The notes: generated from the letters alone by a model not told the origin. A stretch of DNA of 53,135 nucleotides from Candidatus Nealsonbacteria bacterium RIFOXYB1_FULL_40_15 (GCA_001821555.1 MHMM01000006.1:1-53135); one strand, 5' to 3'. Shown: positions 9,234 to 48,521, counted from the stretch's first letter. Translations and numbers: made by a program.

Positions 9234-9311
9234 TGCTGGCGTGTTAGGATTCGAACCTGTAACCTTTTCGTTTTAAAAACGAAATACTCTAACCAGTTGA
9301 GCTACACGCCC
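9234..9311 (-). tRNA. Degenerate tRNA-like gene (anticodon TTA, or Lys-TTT with a 2-nt loop insertion); probable pseudo-tRNA
   Basis: GGGCGTG-TA-GCTC-AACTGGTTA-GAGT...GGTTCGAATCC...CACGCC. It has a G1:A72 mismatch, two T-stem mismatches and a GCA end. Confidence 0.6.
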
Positions 9312-43536: not shown

Positions 43537-44139
43537 TTAGTCAAATATTCCGCCGCTGCCGCCGAATAATTCATTGAGAATTATCAACTGCCCCAAATCT
43601 CCTCCAAAAATCCCTCCGTTGGAGCCGTTAAACAGATTGCCTGTTCCGTTCCCAAAGAGAGACTGGAGTATAAATAGATCTCCCAAATCCGTATCGCCCC
43701 CTCCTAGAATATCGCCGCCGCCAAACAGTTCGCTCAAGATGAACAAATCTCCCAGATTGTTTCCTCCGTTGAATATTCCCTCCGAAGATCCTATCCCTGC
43801 TGTCGGAAGAGCAAGCACTTGTCCCGGAAAGATAAGATCGGGATTTGCGAGATTGTTCTGGCTAGCTATAGACGGCCACAAATTAGCGTTCCCCAGATAA
43901 ACAGCTGCTATTCCCGAAAGCGTATCCCCCGGCTGGACAACTACAGTTCTGCCTGTTGAAGTTCCTCCGTTGAACACTCCCCCAGAAAAGAGCTGGTCTA
44001 AGATAATGAGATCTCCGAGATCCGTATCATCTCCGCTGCCAAATAAGGCAGCTTCTGTGGGAACTGCCGCTCCGGCGCCGACAACTACGACTCCGGCTAC
44101 AGCAAGACCTAGAGCAAATTTCTTTATTTTATTTTTCAT
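43537..44139 (-). CDS. Secreted LysM protein with four (D/N)LG(D/Q)L(I/F)IL..LF repeats
   Basis: Signal peptide ending AEA, LysM VQPGDTLSGIA...NPDLIFPGQVL, Gly-rich repeats. Confidence 0.85.
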   Translation of the reverse strand: MKNKIKKFALGLAVAGVVVVGAGAAVPTEAALFGSGDDTDLGDLIILDQLFSGGVFNGGTSTGRTVVVQPGDTLSGIAAVYLGNANLWPSIASQNNLANPDLIFPGQVLALPTAGIGSSEGIFNGGNNLGDLFILSELFGGGDILGGGDTDLGDLFILQSLFGNGTGNLFNGSNGGIFGGDLGQLIILNELFGGSGGIFD

Positions 44140-44469
44140 GTTTTTTAATTTTTACCTTTCCTACCCTCCTCCGGCCTTTTTGTGAGGGCCGCAAATACTA
44201 AGGAAGGTAGCTTATAATATCTCTGCAGCCCTCAATAATTTACGACGCGTTTTCCCTTTTTTTTCTACAAACTTGCCAGAAACGCTCAAAAATATATAAT
44301 AAAAAAATGGAAGAAAAAATAACCTGCCTCAAAACTTTCAAGGAGGCCTTAAAAAAGACGAAAAAATGCTGTTACTTCTGCGGAAAGAAAAAAATAAAGA
44401 AAATTATAATAGAGGACGGAAAAAAGCGGATAATAAAAAGCAGATCTTGAAAGATCGGCTTTTTTATTT

Positions 44470-44781
44470 TCATTCCGTATCTTCTAAGAGATCGTCAAAT
44501 TCTGATTCTACATCCGCAAGCTTGGGAAGATTCAAGGAATCCAGCTTCTCGTTTATTCCCTCCTCTGAAGTAAGATCTGAATGGAACTGATTAACCACTT
44601 CTTCGGACGAGACAAGCTTATGATACTTGTCTTTTTCTTTAGCGGCGAATTCTTTTACGCTTTCTAAGTTTCCCCTCTCTTCTTCAGAATAGTCCTCATC
44701 TGAAGATTCAAGTATCGGATCAAAAACATTTTCATCCAAAAACTTCAAAAGCTTATCTTTTTTATCTTCCTTTTTTGCCAT
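44470..44781 (-). CDS. Acidic hypothetical protein
   Basis: Likely start MAKKEDKK; helical and acidic; no family recognised. Confidence 0.65.
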   Translation of the reverse strand: MAKKEDKKDKLLKFLDENVFDPILESSDEDYSEEERGNLESVKEFAAKEKDKYHKLVSSEEVVNQFHSDLTSEEGINEKLDSLNLPKLADVESEFDDLLEDTE

Positions 44782-44922
44782 AGCTATTATTTTTAAAAGT
44801 TGATAATGCGACAACTAGATACTAATCCATGGTCTCTTAAAAAACTGTTAAACAAAAACGGCCTCAAAGCCGTTATTTCTGCTCTCTGATTTTTATCTTC
44901 TTTTTTAATTAATTCCTATATA

Positions 44923-44951
44923 TTGACTCTTCAAAATTAAGAATGTAGAAT
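44923..44951 (+). promoter_or_regulatory. Sigma70 promoter ahead of the tRNA 5' copy
   Basis: TTGACT, 17-nt spacer, TAGAAT; predicted TSS a few nt before 44962. Confidence 0.7.
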
Positions 44952-44959
44952 ACAAATAC

Positions 44960-45010
44960 ATTCCGCGGTAGCTTCAGCCAAAGGCTGATCCGCCTCCGGC
45001 GGACAATGGT
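44960..45010 (+). repeat. Duplicated 5' end of tRNA-Asn interrupted by a 30-nt double hairpin
   Basis: ATTCCGCGGTAGCT + [TCAGCC-AAA-GGCTGA, TCCGCC-TCC-GGCGGA] + CAATGGT versus ATTCCGCGGTAGCTCAATGGT at 45246-45266. Confidence 0.85.
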
Positions 45011-45257
45011 TATGTTCTTTGTATATATTTTAAAAAGTTTAAAAAATGGCAAAAGATATATTGGTTGCACAGGAAAAGAACCAGAGATCAGAATAATAGA
45101 GCATAATTCTGGTTGCAATAAGTGGACTAGAGTAAATAAGCCCTTTAAGCTTATTTATAAAGAATTATATAATAGTAAAACGGAGGCACTAAAAAGAGAG
45201 AACTTTTTAAAATCTGGCCAAGGAAGAAAATTCATTGATCAACATATTCCGCGGTAG
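45006..45257 (+). CDS. Stand-alone GIY-YIG nuclease
   Basis: FVYIL...RYIGCT, R..EHN, T....P, EAL.RE..LK; start and stop codons both lie inside tRNA-derived sequence. Confidence 0.9.
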   Translation: MVMFFVYILKSLKNGKRYIGCTGKEPEIRIIEHNSGCNKWTRVNKPFKLIYKELYNSKTEALKRENFLKSGQGRKFIDQHIPR

Positions 45258-45319
45258 CTCAATGGTGGAGCAAGAAGCTGTTAACTTCAAGGTTGCAGGT
45301 TCGAGTCCTGCCCGCGGAG
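45248..45319 (+). tRNA. tRNA-Asn(GTT)
   Basis: Acceptor TCCGCGG/CCGCGGA, D arm GCTC/GAGC, loop CT-GTT-AA, T arm GCAGG-TTCGAGT-CCTGC, discriminator G, no encoded CCA. Confidence 0.95.
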
Positions 45320-45391
45320 CCGAGATAGACGAACAGGAACAAAACCTCCTATTTTTCCTTTTTTCAAAAAGCCTAATTTCCTATTCAAAAA

Positions 45392-45508
45392 CTGTTTCCA
45401 TATTTTTATGTTTTGCCCGTTCTGGCCTTGACTTTTTAGATAAATAAGCGCATAATTTAGCTATTGTTAATTTGTACATTCAATCCCCTGCATAGATCGA
45501 AAGGAGAA
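45392..45508 (+). repeat. 117-bp promoter/RBS module, copy 1
   Basis: Identical to 52769-52885 except 3 substitutions; contains TTGACT-17-CATAAT (45428-45456) and ends at AAGGAGAA. Confidence 0.9.
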
Positions 45509-45511
45509 GTC

Positions 45512-46363
45512 ATGCCGAACGTAGAAATTCATGGAATGGGCAAACGAGAGGAAGCCAATCAATTGGCAGACAAGATCTTCCAACTTTTTGCCGACAAACC
45601 ATATGTCGATGAGATGGTTGTCACCATCTTCGACACGTTCGTCCGGGACAAGGAAGGAGATTCGCAGCCGTTCCTCCGTCTGGCAAATTCATGCCAAGAC
45701 CACACGACAGAAATTATCCAGAAACTCCGCCGATTGGGACTTGATGTCGAGCACGTTCAGCTCCAGGCATTCTACCCCAAGCAGACAATCATCGCGGTTT
45801 CAGTCAACGAACTTAATAAGTTCGGCTGCCCTCACTGTGGATATCGTTCGGGAGCAATGCCTGTTTCCGGCGGCGGATCGGGAGTATGGCAGTGTGGAGA
45901 GTGCGGAAAGACTTGCTGCGTTCTTGCTGAAGGTGTCGTCAAGTCGACAATCGGCTTCAATGGAGAGTATCCCGAATTGCAGTCGCATCCCCGACGCGGC
46001 ACGCCAGCGCATGGGCGACCTGACAACAAGCCGGATAGCGGAGGCGAATTCTTCCGTTCTCGTGGAATCGGGCTTGATGACTGCAGTTGTTTCGTTTGCG
46101 GCACGAAAGGGCATCCCATGCTTCACAACATTGCGGCTTTCGTGCAGTGCAAGGAAGCTGGCGAACGGGTAGTTACAATGATCGGGCAGGGTGCAGTCCT
46201 CGACTATCGTGAATACGAACCCGATCGCGTTCAGGTCAAGGTTGGTGCATGCGATGCTCACTATGCTAACCTCGAAGAGCTCGACAGATTGGTCAGTAGT
46301 GGCACCATCAGCACCAATGTGGTCAAAATGGCAAGGGATTTTTCCCTAACTCCCTCCAAGTAA
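45512..46363 (+). CDS. Hypothetical protein with multiple Zn-ribbon motifs
   Basis: Start MPNVEIHG after AAGGAG; CPHC, CGECGKTC, CSCFVC, CDAH. Confidence 0.75.
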   Translation: MPNVEIHGMGKREEANQLADKIFQLFADKPYVDEMVVTIFDTFVRDKEGDSQPFLRLANSCQDHTTEIIQKLRRLGLDVEHVQLQAFYPKQTIIAVSVNELNKFGCPHCGYRSGAMPVSGGGSGVWQCGECGKTCCVLAEGVVKSTIGFNGEYPELQSHPRRGTPAHGRPDNKPDSGGEFFRSRGIGLDDCSCFVCGTKGHPMLHNIAAFVQCKEAGERVVTMIGQGAVLDYREYEPDRVQVKVGACDAHYANLEELDRLVSSGTISTNVVKMARDFSLTPSK

Positions 46364-46384
46364 AATAGGGGCATTCTTGCTAAG

Positions 46385-46425
46385 GCGTGATTTTATCGGT
46401 AATACCGGTGATATCACGCTTTTTT
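46385..46425 (+). terminator. Intrinsic terminator
   Basis: GCGTGAT...ATCACGC followed by TTTTTT. Confidence 0.6.
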
Positions 46426-46454
46426 ATTTAATTAACAATATACTATGTAGGTTC

Positions 46455-46523
46455 TAACCCTTCAGTAAATTCAGGGTAAACCCCTTTCGGTGAACTCGGG
46501 TAAACGTCCCGCCCAAGGCGGGC
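46455..46523. repeat. Tandem imperfect repeat plus mini-hairpin
   Basis: CCCTTCAGTAAATTCAGGGTAAAC / CCCTTTCGGTGAACTCGGGTAAAC, then CCCGCC-CAA-GGCGGG. Confidence 0.55.
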
Positions 46524-46596
46524 AGGCGTCTATTGCACGGAGCAGTTAGTATTATAAAAAATCGCTTTTTAAGTGGTTTTTTGTTAGAATAAAATA

Positions 46597-47121
46597 ATGA
46601 AACCGAAAGCGAAAGTCTATATTGACGGGGCAAATATGTTTTACACTCAAAAGAAATTGGGTTGGTTTATTGATTGGAAAAAAGTAAAAGATTTTCTTCA
46701 AGAAAATCGAGAAATCTTAGAAATTCGTTATTATACGGGCCTAAAAGTTAACGATGAAAAGATGGCAAGCTTCCTTAGATATTTAGATAATATTGGAATT
46801 GCGCCATTTACTAAACCAGTAAAAGTTATTAAAGTTGGTAACGATCATCCTTCAAAAAAATTTTATAACTATTCAGAAATTTATAAATCCAACTGTGATG
46901 TTGAGATGGCAACAGATATTCTCTTGGAAAGAAAAGAAATAGATGAAATAATTTTATTTACGGGTGATAGCGACTTTCAATACTTAATAAAGAAATTGAA
47001 AGATATAGGCAAGAAGGTTGCAGTTTTTTCATCGAGAAAAACCATTTCTTGGGAAATAAAATTGGTAGTTACGAAATACATTTATTTAGAAGATATTAAG
47101 GATAAAATAATACGAAAATAA
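46597..47121 (+). CDS. NYN-domain (LabA/DUF88, PIN-like) ribonuclease
   Basis: YIDGANM, DVEMATD, FTGDSDF acidic triad, GKKV. Confidence 0.92.
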   Translation: MKPKAKVYIDGANMFYTQKKLGWFIDWKKVKDFLQENREILEIRYYTGLKVNDEKMASFLRYLDNIGIAPFTKPVKVIKVGNDHPSKKFYNYSEIYKSNCDVEMATDILLERKEIDEIILFTGDSDFQYLIKKLKDIGKKVAVFSSRKTISWEIKLVVTKYIYLEDIKDKIIRK

Positions 47122-47160
47122 AAACCGCTCCGATTTGCATCGGAGCGTACTGTAAAACTA
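47115..47160 (-). ncRNA. Predicted ~45-nt small RNA convergent on the NYN gene
   Basis: Upstream consensus promoter; hairpin CGCTCCGAT-N4-ATCGGAGCG with a U tract only on the minus strand. Confidence 0.5.
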
Positions 47161-47165
47161 TTTTA

Positions 47166-47193
47166 AGTATAGCAAATTAGATTTCATTGTCAA
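47166..47193 (-). promoter_or_regulatory. Near-consensus minus-strand promoter facing the NYN gene
   Basis: TTGACA, 16-nt spacer, TATACT with TGn. Confidence 0.7.
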
Positions 47194-47210
47194 TGGGATT
47201 ATCATCAAAT

Positions 47211-47657
47211 ATGCAAAAGGGAGTAGATTATGTCGGAGTAGGGGCAGGAGCTATGATTTTCAATAGAGATGGGAAAGTATTTCTCGCCAAGCGAGGCCCT
47301 AAAGCTCGCAACGAAGCTGGAAAATGGGATTTTCCTGGTGGTGGTGTTGAGTTTGGAAAAAGATGCGAAGATGCAGTTAAGAGAGAAATAAAAGAAGAAT
47401 TTAATATGGATATTGAGATTATCGAACTACTTGAGGTGGTAAGCCATATTTTGCCAGAAGAAAAGCAACATTGGGTTTCTCCTTCGTATATTGCCAAGTA
47501 TGTTTCAGGAGAGCCAAGGATTATGGAACCAGAAAAGACAGAAGAGATAAAATGGGTGGATATTTTAGAAATAAACCCGAATACTTTAACTCAACCAAGC
47601 AGATTTGATTTAGATACATTTAAGAAAAAATACGAAAATAATTATAAATTTAAATAA
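47211..47657 (+). CDS. Nudix hydrolase 1
   Basis: GVGAGAMI, WDFPGGGVEFG...REIKEE, HWVS, P.IMEPEK; start set at MQKG (track 47187). Confidence 0.9.
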   Translation: MQKGVDYVGVGAGAMIFNRDGKVFLAKRGPKARNEAGKWDFPGGGVEFGKRCEDAVKREIKEEFNMDIEIIELLEVVSHILPEEKQHWVSPSYIAKYVSGEPRIMEPEKTEEIKWVDILEINPNTLTQPSRFDLDTFKKKYENNYKFK

Positions 47658-47665
47658 TATAAATT

Positions 47666-48088
47666 ATGGAAAATAAAGAAAATAGGCCGAAGGTGGGTGT
47701 AGGGGTATTTGTTATCAAGGATGGAAAGGTGCTTTTGGGAAAGCGTAAGAATTCTCATGGGGCAGGTGCTTGGTGTTTTGCAGGGGGACATCTTGAATAT
47801 GGAGAATCTTGGGAAGAATGTGCTATCCGAGAAACAATAGAAGAAACAGGATTAAAGATAAAGAATATTCGTTTTGCTACTGCGACAAATGATATTTTTG
47901 AAAAAGAGAATAAGCACTATATTACCATATTTATGCTTGCAGATTATGATGGAGGAGAATTAAAAATTATGGAGCCAGATAAGTGCGAAAAATGGGATTG
48001 GTTTGAATGGAAAGAGGAAAAACTGCCCAAACCTTTGTTTATTCCTCAGCAAAATTTATTAAAACAGAAATATAGCCCATTTAAATAA
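47666..48088 (+). CDS. Nudix hydrolase 2 (NUDT15/MutT-like)
   Basis: PKVGVGV, LLGKRKNSHGAG.W, GGHLEYGE...RETIEETGL, MEPDKC..W.WF. Confidence 0.92.
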   Translation: MENKENRPKVGVGVFVIKDGKVLLGKRKNSHGAGAWCFAGGHLEYGESWEECAIRETIEETGLKIKNIRFATATNDIFEKENKHYITIFMLADYDGGELKIMEPDKCEKWDWFEWKEEKLPKPLFIPQQNLLKQKYSPFK

Positions 48089-48098
48089 AAGATTATTT

Positions 48099-48521
48099 AT
48101 GAAAAATGAATACGACCAGTTTCATGTAGGAATTCACGTTTTTGTAATTAGAGATAATAAGCTTCTTTTGGGCAAAAGGAAGAATGTTTATGGAGAAGGT
48201 TCTTGGGGTTTGCCTGGCGGACATTTGGAGCAAAAAGAGAAAATGCAAGATACTGCTAAAAGAGAACTTATGGAAGAAACGGGAATGACTGCAAATAACT
48301 TTGAATTTGTTTGTTTGGTAAATGATAATAGAGAAGACCAGCACTATATTCAAGTTGGGTTTATGGCAAAAGATGCAGGAGGCGAGCCAATCTTAAAAGA
48401 ACCAAATAAATGCGAAGAATGGAAATGGTTTGATTTAAACGATTTGCCTCAAGAAGTATTTGTTGGAGCGAAGGATATAATCAAAGCTTTCCAGAATAAA
48501 TTAAATTTTATTGATAGATAA
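48099..48521 (+). CDS. Nudix hydrolase 3 (NUDT15/MutT-like)
   Basis: LLGKRKN..G.GSWGLPGGHLE...RELMEETGM, EPNKCEEW.WF. Confidence 0.92.
   Translation: MKNEYDQFHVGIHVFVIRDNKLLLGKRKNVYGEGSWGLPGGHLEQKEKMQDTAKRELMEETGMTANNFEFVCLVNDNREDQHYIQVGFMAKDAGGEPILKEPNKCEEWKWFDLNDLPQEVFVGAKDIIKAFQNKLNFIDR

Follow-up and report, generated by a model that had tools for sequence, protein, structure and literature searches.

A gene for a predicted NYN-domain ribonuclease and a convergent small-RNA gene form a candidate RNA-controlled cassette in Patescibacteria

What accompanies a bacterial NYN-domain ribonuclease, and could a very short RNA encoded at the 3′ end of its gene hold it in check? This question is raised by a locus at positions 46597–47193 of a 53,135-nucleotide stretch of DNA from Candidatus Nealsonbacteria bacterium RIFOXYB1_FULL_40_15 (GCA_001821555.1, MHMM01000006.1:1-53135), which we refer to as the window and which corresponds to contig C6:1-53135 of a 761-kb genome in 21 contigs. 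The sequence is present in DNA runs from groundwater, soil and sediment metagenomes, and the close relatives of the NYN gene belong to Patescibacteria (Staskawiczbacteria and Roizmanbacteria). Patescibacteria are ultra-small bacteria, most of which are uncultured. We describe here a gene for a predicted NYN endoribonuclease together with a predicted small-RNA gene that faces it and travels with it across lineages, and we weigh the possibility that the RNA serves as the cognate antidote or regulator of the enzyme.

The NYN coding sequence ends at position 47121, and four nucleotides past its stop codon begins a hairpin (47126–47147) with a 9-bp stem and a 4-nt GCAA loop. Read on the minus strand (47147..47126) the hairpin is CGCUCCGAU-GCAA-AUCGGAGCG and is followed by the terminator U-run GUUUUUAUUUU (47115–47125). 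As minus-strand RNA it folds with −17 kcal/mol (z = −4.07) and none of 200 shuffled sequences folds equally well; on the plus strand the fold is less stable and runs into GUACUGUAAAAC rather than into a U-run. Aimed back at this hairpin is a near-consensus sigma-70 promoter (47166–47193, minus strand) comprising a −35 TTGACA at 47193–47188, a 16-nt spacer, a TG at 47174–47173 and a −10 TATACT at 47171–47166, which matches the consensus at 11 of 12 positions in addition to carrying the extended −10 TG. The end of the −10 element lies 18 nt from the stem. The predicted small RNA, about 42 nt long (41–45) and running on the minus strand from 47158 to about 47117, consists of (A)GUUUUACAGUA, the hairpin and the U-run, with the conserved single-stranded 5′ tail GUUUUACAGUA occupying 47148–47158 and C47147, the conserved twelfth base of the RNA, making the closing C–G pair of the stem.

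The two genes are thus convergent, and the U-run overlaps the NYN stop: it complements four nucleotides beyond the stop codon, the stop codon itself, the last codon and three nucleotides of the preceding codon, and the extent to which the RNA overlaps the NYN mRNA depends on where that mRNA ends. A preliminary description of the locus had reported the 9-bp hairpin after the NYN stop with its U tract on the opposite strand, a near-perfect TGn-extended promoter (TTGACA/TATACT) directed back at it, and a non-coding product of about 45 nt overlapping only the last nucleotides of the NYN gene. All of these were recovered at the positions given. The sole short open reading frame in the RNA, 14 codons in the window (MQIGAVFIFVLFYP), was considered as a coding sequence and rejected because the ortholog L002 has no ATG.

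Promoters of comparable strength to that of the small RNA are few in this genome, in which canonical promoters have the form ATTGACA-N-TGnTAnAAT, and number 101 across both strands of the 761 kb. Under a strict rule requiring a terminator within 90 nt, three of the 101 qualified; two of these three abut NYN stop codons (C6:47193 and C5:16867) and the third, on contig C10, is unrelated to NYN. The strict rule missed one more NYN paralog (C5:21649-22113), which is laid out alike but has a longer hairpin. In all, three of the four NYN genes of the genome carry a convergent promoter-to-terminator unit, and the NYN gene on contig C9, beside rpsO, does not. A chance origin of the NYN/RNA layout is excluded.

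Two further observations concern these other units. The two NYN cassettes on contig C5 (C5:16312-16867 and C5:21649-22199) lie 5 kb apart, encode different convergent small RNAs and share the 5′ end 'hairpin-TTTTGTGTTAGAAT...ATG'. The genome has just one more strong mini-unit of promoter and terminator, that on C10 (C10:15482-15575); it is about 55 nt long and runs convergently towards the 3′ end of a gene whose product is a peptidoglycan-binding-type protein.

In metagenome and genome contigs, 59 loci were retrieved, of which 57 (L031-L087) are orthologs with 49–85% protein identity to the window's NYN protein; the remaining two are distant NYN genes (25–27% identity) and have no such promoter. 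The preliminary description had suggested aligning the 3′ flanks of homologs and looking for a conserved reverse promoter and hairpin. These were kept, along with the 12-nt 5′ segment GUUUUACAGUAC and the U-run, at every ortholog locus for which the 3′ flank was available (55 of 55), and promoter, 12-mer, hairpin and U-run are likewise all present in L002, a 63%-identical ortholog from a sister genus. The ortholog promoters read TTGAC(A/G/T), a 16–18-nt spacer of unrelated sequence and TAnnnT, usually preceded by TG. The 12-mer, GUUU(U/A)ACA(G/C)(U/A)AC, lies 4–7 nt past the −10 element and was found in 57/57 loci with flank, so that conservation of the RNA starts at the predicted transcription start. 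Near-invariance of the 12-mer contrasts with variation in the promoter spacer, the stem and the synonymous sites of the NYN gene, and holds across proteins that are only about 50% identical. Since synonymous codons in the same NYN genes vary freely, the 12-mer is under stronger constraint than the coding sequence, and a near-invariant tail beside drifting stems and drifting synonymous codons points to a trans-acting factor that reads the sequence of the tail.

The stem is maintained by compensatory change. In an equal-geometry alignment of 15 sequences, eight of the nine stem pairs show changes in both partners, and pairing holds in 98.5% of cells; the covariation score was reached by none of 500 shuffles, and sliding the partner arm by one to three columns reduced pairing to 33–51%. 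The strand on which selection acts can also be read from the alignment. All 34 unique ortholog RNAs have a U-run after the hairpin and fold more stably in the minus sense (mean −16.5 vs −12.4 kcal/mol), and between them they contain 23 G–U pairs, each of which would be a C–A mismatch on the plus strand. A covariance model (R1) built from 15 orthologs, the window's own sequence included, scores the window RNA at 62.1 bits (E = 6.6e-11) as its only match in the window. No Rfam family matched at gathering or E-value thresholds, the best sub-threshold match being SpF11 (24.4 bits vs a threshold of 54). Judged on this comparative sequence evidence, the small-RNA gene is real and is selected as an RNA.

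The protein partner (174 aa; 46597–47121, plus strand) matches the Pfam NYN family PF01936 over residues 5–165 with E = 3.1e-25 and 89.8 bits (cut-off 24.2). Its AlphaFold2 model has a mean predicted local distance difference test (pLDDT) score of 93.5, and Foldseek matched this model to LabA-like VPA0982 (2QIP; E = 3.6e-11, template modelling score 0.78–0.84), which is also the sole solved relative of the protein by sequence, and to the NYN endoribonuclease domain of MARF1 (E = 3e-5). As modelled, the protein has a PIN-like alpha/beta fold and is a member of the NYN family. Residues D10, N13, D101, D124 and D126, among which the aspartates are the catalytic acidic residues, are invariant among 13 RNA-linked homologs, and the protein is predicted to be a catalytically competent LabA-type endoribonuclease. 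It shares fold and catalytic residues with VPA0982, cyanobacterial LabA and the MARF1 NYN domain (COG1432). Searches of NCBIfam and PHROGs with the protein gained no functional name.

Expression of the two genes is predicted to be unequal. The left end of the cassette (46557–46596, plus strand) consists of a T-run and a promoter that has an extended −10 element only (TGtTAGAAT, with TG at 46582–46583 and TAGAAT at 46585–46590). Six nucleotides separate the end of this element from the ATG, no Shine-Dalgarno sequence is present, and the layout, 'hairpin-TTTTGTGTTAGAATAAAATAATG', also occurs 5′ of both contig-C5 NYN paralogs and of many orthologs. From this spacing, the missing Shine-Dalgarno sequence and the recurrence of the layout, transcription would start so close to the ATG that the NYN mRNA is probably leaderless or nearly so, and its promoter is probably weak. 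Because consensus −35 and −10 elements would drive the RNA and just an extended −10 the NYN gene, the RNA is predicted to be made in excess over the enzyme.

Orthologs share DNA homology with the window from 10–40 nt before the ATG (46557–46590) to 47175–47194 in the RNA promoter, and the longest flanking open reading frames are unrelated in nearly all orthologs, duplicate contigs excepted. These differing flanks, together with homology that ends at both promoters, delimit a cassette of about 640 bp (46557–47194) bounded by its two promoters. By the same sequence comparisons, the NYN and RNA genes form a compact mobile two-gene cassette in which the RNA is obligatorily linked to the NYN gene. 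A G+C-richer segment at 46440–46556 was considered as part of the module and rejected, being neither conserved in orthologs nor unusually structured; it lies between the upstream terminator and the cassette and folds with z −0.29 on the plus strand and z −2.1 on the minus strand.

The association extends well beyond the orthologs of the window's gene. In a first set of relatives, all 17 non-housekeeping NYN homologs (L001-L015, L017 and L020) carry a convergent RNA unit, in which a TTGACA-16/18-TGnTAnnnT promoter leads into a short RNA that ends in a terminator at the stop codon, and 15 of 20 further loci carry such a unit. Loci that do not are rpsO-linked housekeeping genes, members of a small separate clade (L107-L109) or genes that are not NYN. 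Counting this genome and its relatives together, the unit was found at 35 of the 50 NYN homologs sampled; the two contig-C5 paralogs and 30 more loci, these in relatives, each have an RNA of their own. By sequence, at least nine types of RNA can be distinguished, among them GUGAURRCAC followed by a hairpin, GUAACGCUAC followed by a hairpin, a two-hairpin type of the form AUGCGGAUAAGAAAUUAUCUGU-UAUCAAC-terminator, and one some 75 nt long. When the 50 proteins were placed in a maximum-likelihood tree, types t1, t2, t4, t5, t6, t7 and t9 each coincided with one NYN clade at 97–100% support; no such single clade was seen for type t8 or for the unclassified RNAs. The NYN genes that lack an RNA form a short-branched rpsO-linked clade (12 entries), which is single-copy, and one small clade. 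Where a genome has several cassettes, these carry different RNA types: G012 has t4, t7, t9 and one other, G018 has t2, t6 and t7, and the three cassettes of the present genome have three different RNAs. The two-component ribonuclease/small-RNA module put forward in the preliminary description is strongly supported by this linkage, by the covariation and by the match between RNA types and NYN clades; that the RNA acts as an antitoxin is the part of that proposal that we infer.

The cassettes show signs, read from their sequences, of behaving as selfish or conflict elements: they are multi-copy and mobile, some NYN genes are disrupted, and one RNA is orphaned. Relatives contain up to six NYN matches per genome, the housekeeping copy counted. 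At least six window-type NYN genes whose RNA gene is intact are themselves disrupted, by a stop at codon 23 in L002, by premature stops in L075, L077, L086 and L087 and by an internal deletion in L071. The orphan (L014 282-1470; genome G009, contig C19) is an intact window-type RNA that scores 55.6 bits with R1 and has no cognate NYN gene adjacent, and a search of genome G009 found no NYN gene of the window's type. This RNA is convergent on a gene for a 353-aa reverse transcriptase (PADLOC defence-associated reverse transcriptase, E = 4e-51; Pfam RVT_1), and its other neighbour is a type-t6 NYN cassette that starts about 10 nt from the −35 element of the RNA.

In-frame stops were also compared by position: that of L002 (TAG) and one in L009 (TGA), an ortholog with a different RNA type, fall at the same conserved Trp codon, in an LGW motif, and in both cases the partner RNA gene is intact.

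As to what such an element might act against, PADLOC, a model library for known and candidate anti-phage defence proteins, returned only NYN-type models for the window's protein ('NYN', E = 2.6e-20; HEC-09, a candidate defence model, E = 1e-8). These matches, and the one locus beside a defence-type reverse transcriptase, are weakly suggestive of an anti-phage role. No NYN relatives were found in IMG/VR or among GenBank phages, and 22 IMG/VR pattern matches examined as possible virus copies were discarded, all of them lacking the hairpin and U-run and their number being about that expected by chance. NYN genes about 30% identical to the window's occur on rhizobial and Methylorubrum plasmids; in the one 3′ flank read, that from Sinorhizobium meliloti, no obvious convergent promoter and terminator were seen.

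What, then, does the RNA do? We give somewhat better than an even chance to the reading in which it is the cognate antidote or regulator of the NYN nuclease, the two forming a toxin-antitoxin-like cassette. On this reading the first gene would yield the NYN endoribonuclease from its extended −10 promoter, probably on a leaderless mRNA, and the second, convergent gene would yield the RNA of about 42 nt with its 11-nt tail, its G+C-rich hairpin abutting the NYN stop and its U-run; the RNA would then hold the nuclease in check as its cognate partner, in the fashion of a toxin-antitoxin pair. The likeliest mode would be that the protein binds the RNA directly, either as an inhibitor or as a pseudo-substrate in which the tail forms a 5′ flap on the hairpin, and antisense pairing with the 3′ end of the NYN mRNA may add to this. 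Direct recognition by the protein is favoured because the tail is near-invariant beside stems that drift freely, a pattern that cis-antisense action does not require. That the NYN protein is toxic, that the RNA neutralises it and how the RNA would act are all parts of the proposal that we infer.

The obvious comparison is with type III toxin-antitoxin systems (ToxIN, CptIN, TenpIN and AbiQ/antiQ), in which an antitoxin RNA made of tandem repeats is encoded upstream on the same strand with a terminator between it and the toxin gene, and of which there are several non-cross-reacting families. Like these, the cassette would combine an endoribonuclease with a dedicated cognate small RNA, proposed to neutralise it, in a compact mobile unit. 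It differs in that the RNA is single, is transcribed from its own strong promoter and lies downstream and convergent, whereas type III repeats lie upstream, and in that the enzyme has an NYN/PIN-like fold and matches none of the ToxN/AbiQ, CptN or TenpN families. In type III systems the RNA also binds the toxin, inhibits it and is processed by it.

Several points weigh against an antidote role. There are no tandem repeats in 46200–47500, and the downstream, convergent position of the RNA is again unlike type III; no toxin role of an NYN or LabA protein has been demonstrated in the literature searched; the metatranscriptome runs listed contain none of the sampled words of the locus; the match between RNA type and NYN clade is indistinguishable from simple co-inheritance; and the apparent NYN pseudogenes could in part be errors of metagenome assembly.

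The strongest competitor, which we nevertheless regard as unlikely, is that the RNA is purely a cis-antisense regulator of the type I kind, pairing with the 3′ end of the NYN mRNA and leading to RNase III decay or a block at that end. The geometry is right for this, with the genes converging and overlapping at the stop codon. Because the plus-strand hairpin has no U-run, NYN transcripts should read through it and so include everything complementary to the RNA. Genes for RNase III (signature NERLEFLGDA) and RNase Y are present in the genome, and the layout resembles that of txpA/RatA, bsrG/SR4 and yonT/SR6 of Bacillus subtilis, in which a convergent antisense RNA overlaps the 3′ end of the toxin gene (PMC6562991, PMC5848175). 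The likeness to these 3′-overlapping type I systems thus takes in the convergent RNA, its overlap with the end of a putative toxin gene, its predicted strong expression and the presence of RNase III. Antisense pairing, however, is perfect whatever the sequence, which leaves the near-invariant 12-nt tail unexplained, and a window-type RNA persists intact in G009 with no cognate NYN gene nearby for it to pair with. Type I toxins, moreover, are small, hydrophobic, membrane-active peptides and the partner here is a 174-aa protein with a soluble nuclease fold; the RNA, too, is unlike its type I counterparts in being only about 42 nt long and in having an unpaired tail whose sequence is conserved across lineages. 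Since the locus has neither the repeats, upstream position and ToxN-type enzyme of type III nor the peptide of type I, the cassette would represent an RNA-antitoxin-type variant outside both classes.

The conservation of the tail admits another interpretation, namely that the RNA is a cofactor or specificity subunit whose 11-nt tail recognises some conserved RNA, either cellular or from an invader, such as the anticodon loop of tRNA-Tyr. A tail more conserved than the protein fits a conserved trans target, and UUUUACAG within the tail is an exact 8-nt complement of C32–A39 (CUGUAAAA) in the tRNA-Tyr of this genome, that is, the anticodon loop plus A39 (shuffle P = 0.0125, uncorrected); a variant tail, GUUUAACAGAAC, complements the tRNA-Asn loop CUGUUAA. 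On the other hand, the anticodon comparison was post hoc, types t3, t4, t6, t7, t8 and t9 have no anticodon-loop complementarity above that of shuffles, tail variants with G9 changed to C would break the pairing with tRNA-Tyr, and the complement of the tail is matched nowhere else in the genome at one mismatch or fewer. We therefore hold this interpretation to be quite improbable, and assign a similarly low likelihood to its broader form, in which the RNA would be the specificity subunit of an RNA-programmed NYN nuclease with a clade-specific tail selecting the target.

Two candidate explanations of the tail sequence were set aside. Anti-anticodon complementarity as a general rule was dropped, since t1 gave P = 0.0125 with tRNA-Tyr, L015 gave P = 0.03 with tRNA-Arg and most other types gave nothing. 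Mimicry by the tail of a site in the NYN mRNA (GUUUUACA, spanning codons for M-F-Y-T) is coincidental, the Tyr codon being TAT in most orthologs.

Finally, it is very improbable that the RNA is functionless and that its promoter and terminator act merely as an insulator or through transcriptional interference (collision or occlusion) on NYN: a gene with a weak promoter does have a strong convergent one directly 3′ of it, and only the minus-strand transcript is terminated by the hairpin, but such a device needs neither a near-invariant transcribed 12-mer nor clade-specific RNA sequences, and collisions inside the gene would be limited because the transcript ends before the NYN coding region.

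Returning to the proposed antidote or regulator, other published systems share single features with it. VapC toxins are PIN-like nucleases whose antitoxin is a protein, encoded upstream in the operon (PMC5499597); VapBC loci resemble the NYN cassettes in that the nuclease is PIN-like and its acidic active site conserved, and in being multi-copy and mobile, and differ in their protein antitoxin, no protein partner gene being present beside NYN here, since cassette homology covers the NYN and RNA genes only. The nearest published analogy is the set of DUF3800-associated, drum and skipping-rope RNA motifs, which are terminator-ended and of unknown function (Weinberg et al. 2017, PMC5737381). In the DUF3800 case many unrelated, conserved RNA structures are compellingly associated with one protein domain, encoded near them in either orientation (PMC5737381), much as unrelated terminator-ended RNAs are tied to one protein family here; the partner here, however, is NYN, which that paper does not mention, and the RNA has no Rfam match. 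Bacterial NYN proteins have been tentatively linked to tRNA and rRNA processing, functional studies being lacking (PMC5499597), and the rpsO-linked, RNA-less NYN gene on C9 is the better counterpart of such a housekeeping role. Full-text literature searches found no paper in which an RNA antitoxin or a partner RNA is linked to NYN or LabA proteins.

Beyond the cassette, the window continues on the plus strand with three tandem Nudix hydrolase genes (47187–48521), each of which matches the PADLOC candidate PDC-S07. The overlap of the RNA promoter with the upstream region of these genes, remarked on in the preliminary description, turned out to be incidental: among the orthologs compared, only one, the close relative L031, shares the Nudix neighbour. 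The first Nudix gene (ATG at 47211) has no Shine-Dalgarno sequence, and a promoter-like site, TTAGAT-17-TATCAT, ends 5 nt before its ATG, a position that suggests a leaderless mRNA; a second ATG, following GGGAG at 47230, is out of frame with this gene. At about 44000–45500 the GC skew of the window, negative until then, becomes positive close to a change of coding strand; this may mark a replication origin or terminus or be a mere consequence of the switch in gene strand. On the minus strand at 9235–9311, ARAGORN identified a tRNA (Rfam tRNA, 45.3 bits) with the anticodon UUA, which would read the UAA stop codon; its anticodon loop is UUUUAAA, it resembles an ochre suppressor and it adjoins a G+C-richer region at 7–9 kb.

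Bacterial LabA-type NYN proteins are abundant and essentially without assigned function, and Patescibacteria are almost unexplored for small RNAs and conflict systems. If the RNA is indeed the antidote or regulator of its neighbour, NYN nucleases would gain a testable role as RNA-controlled toxins or defence modules, and the cassette would present an architecture for RNA antidotes outside types I and III, with an RNA that is single, convergent and terminator-ended and has a sequence-specific tail. At about 640 bp, it would also be a minimal cassette that can be moved into laboratory strains, and the RNA types, most of them confined to one NYN clade, offer a natural set for the study of RNA–protein specificity. 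Should the RNA instead prove to be a specificity subunit, Patescibacteria would carry a family of small mobile RNA-guided ribonucleases.

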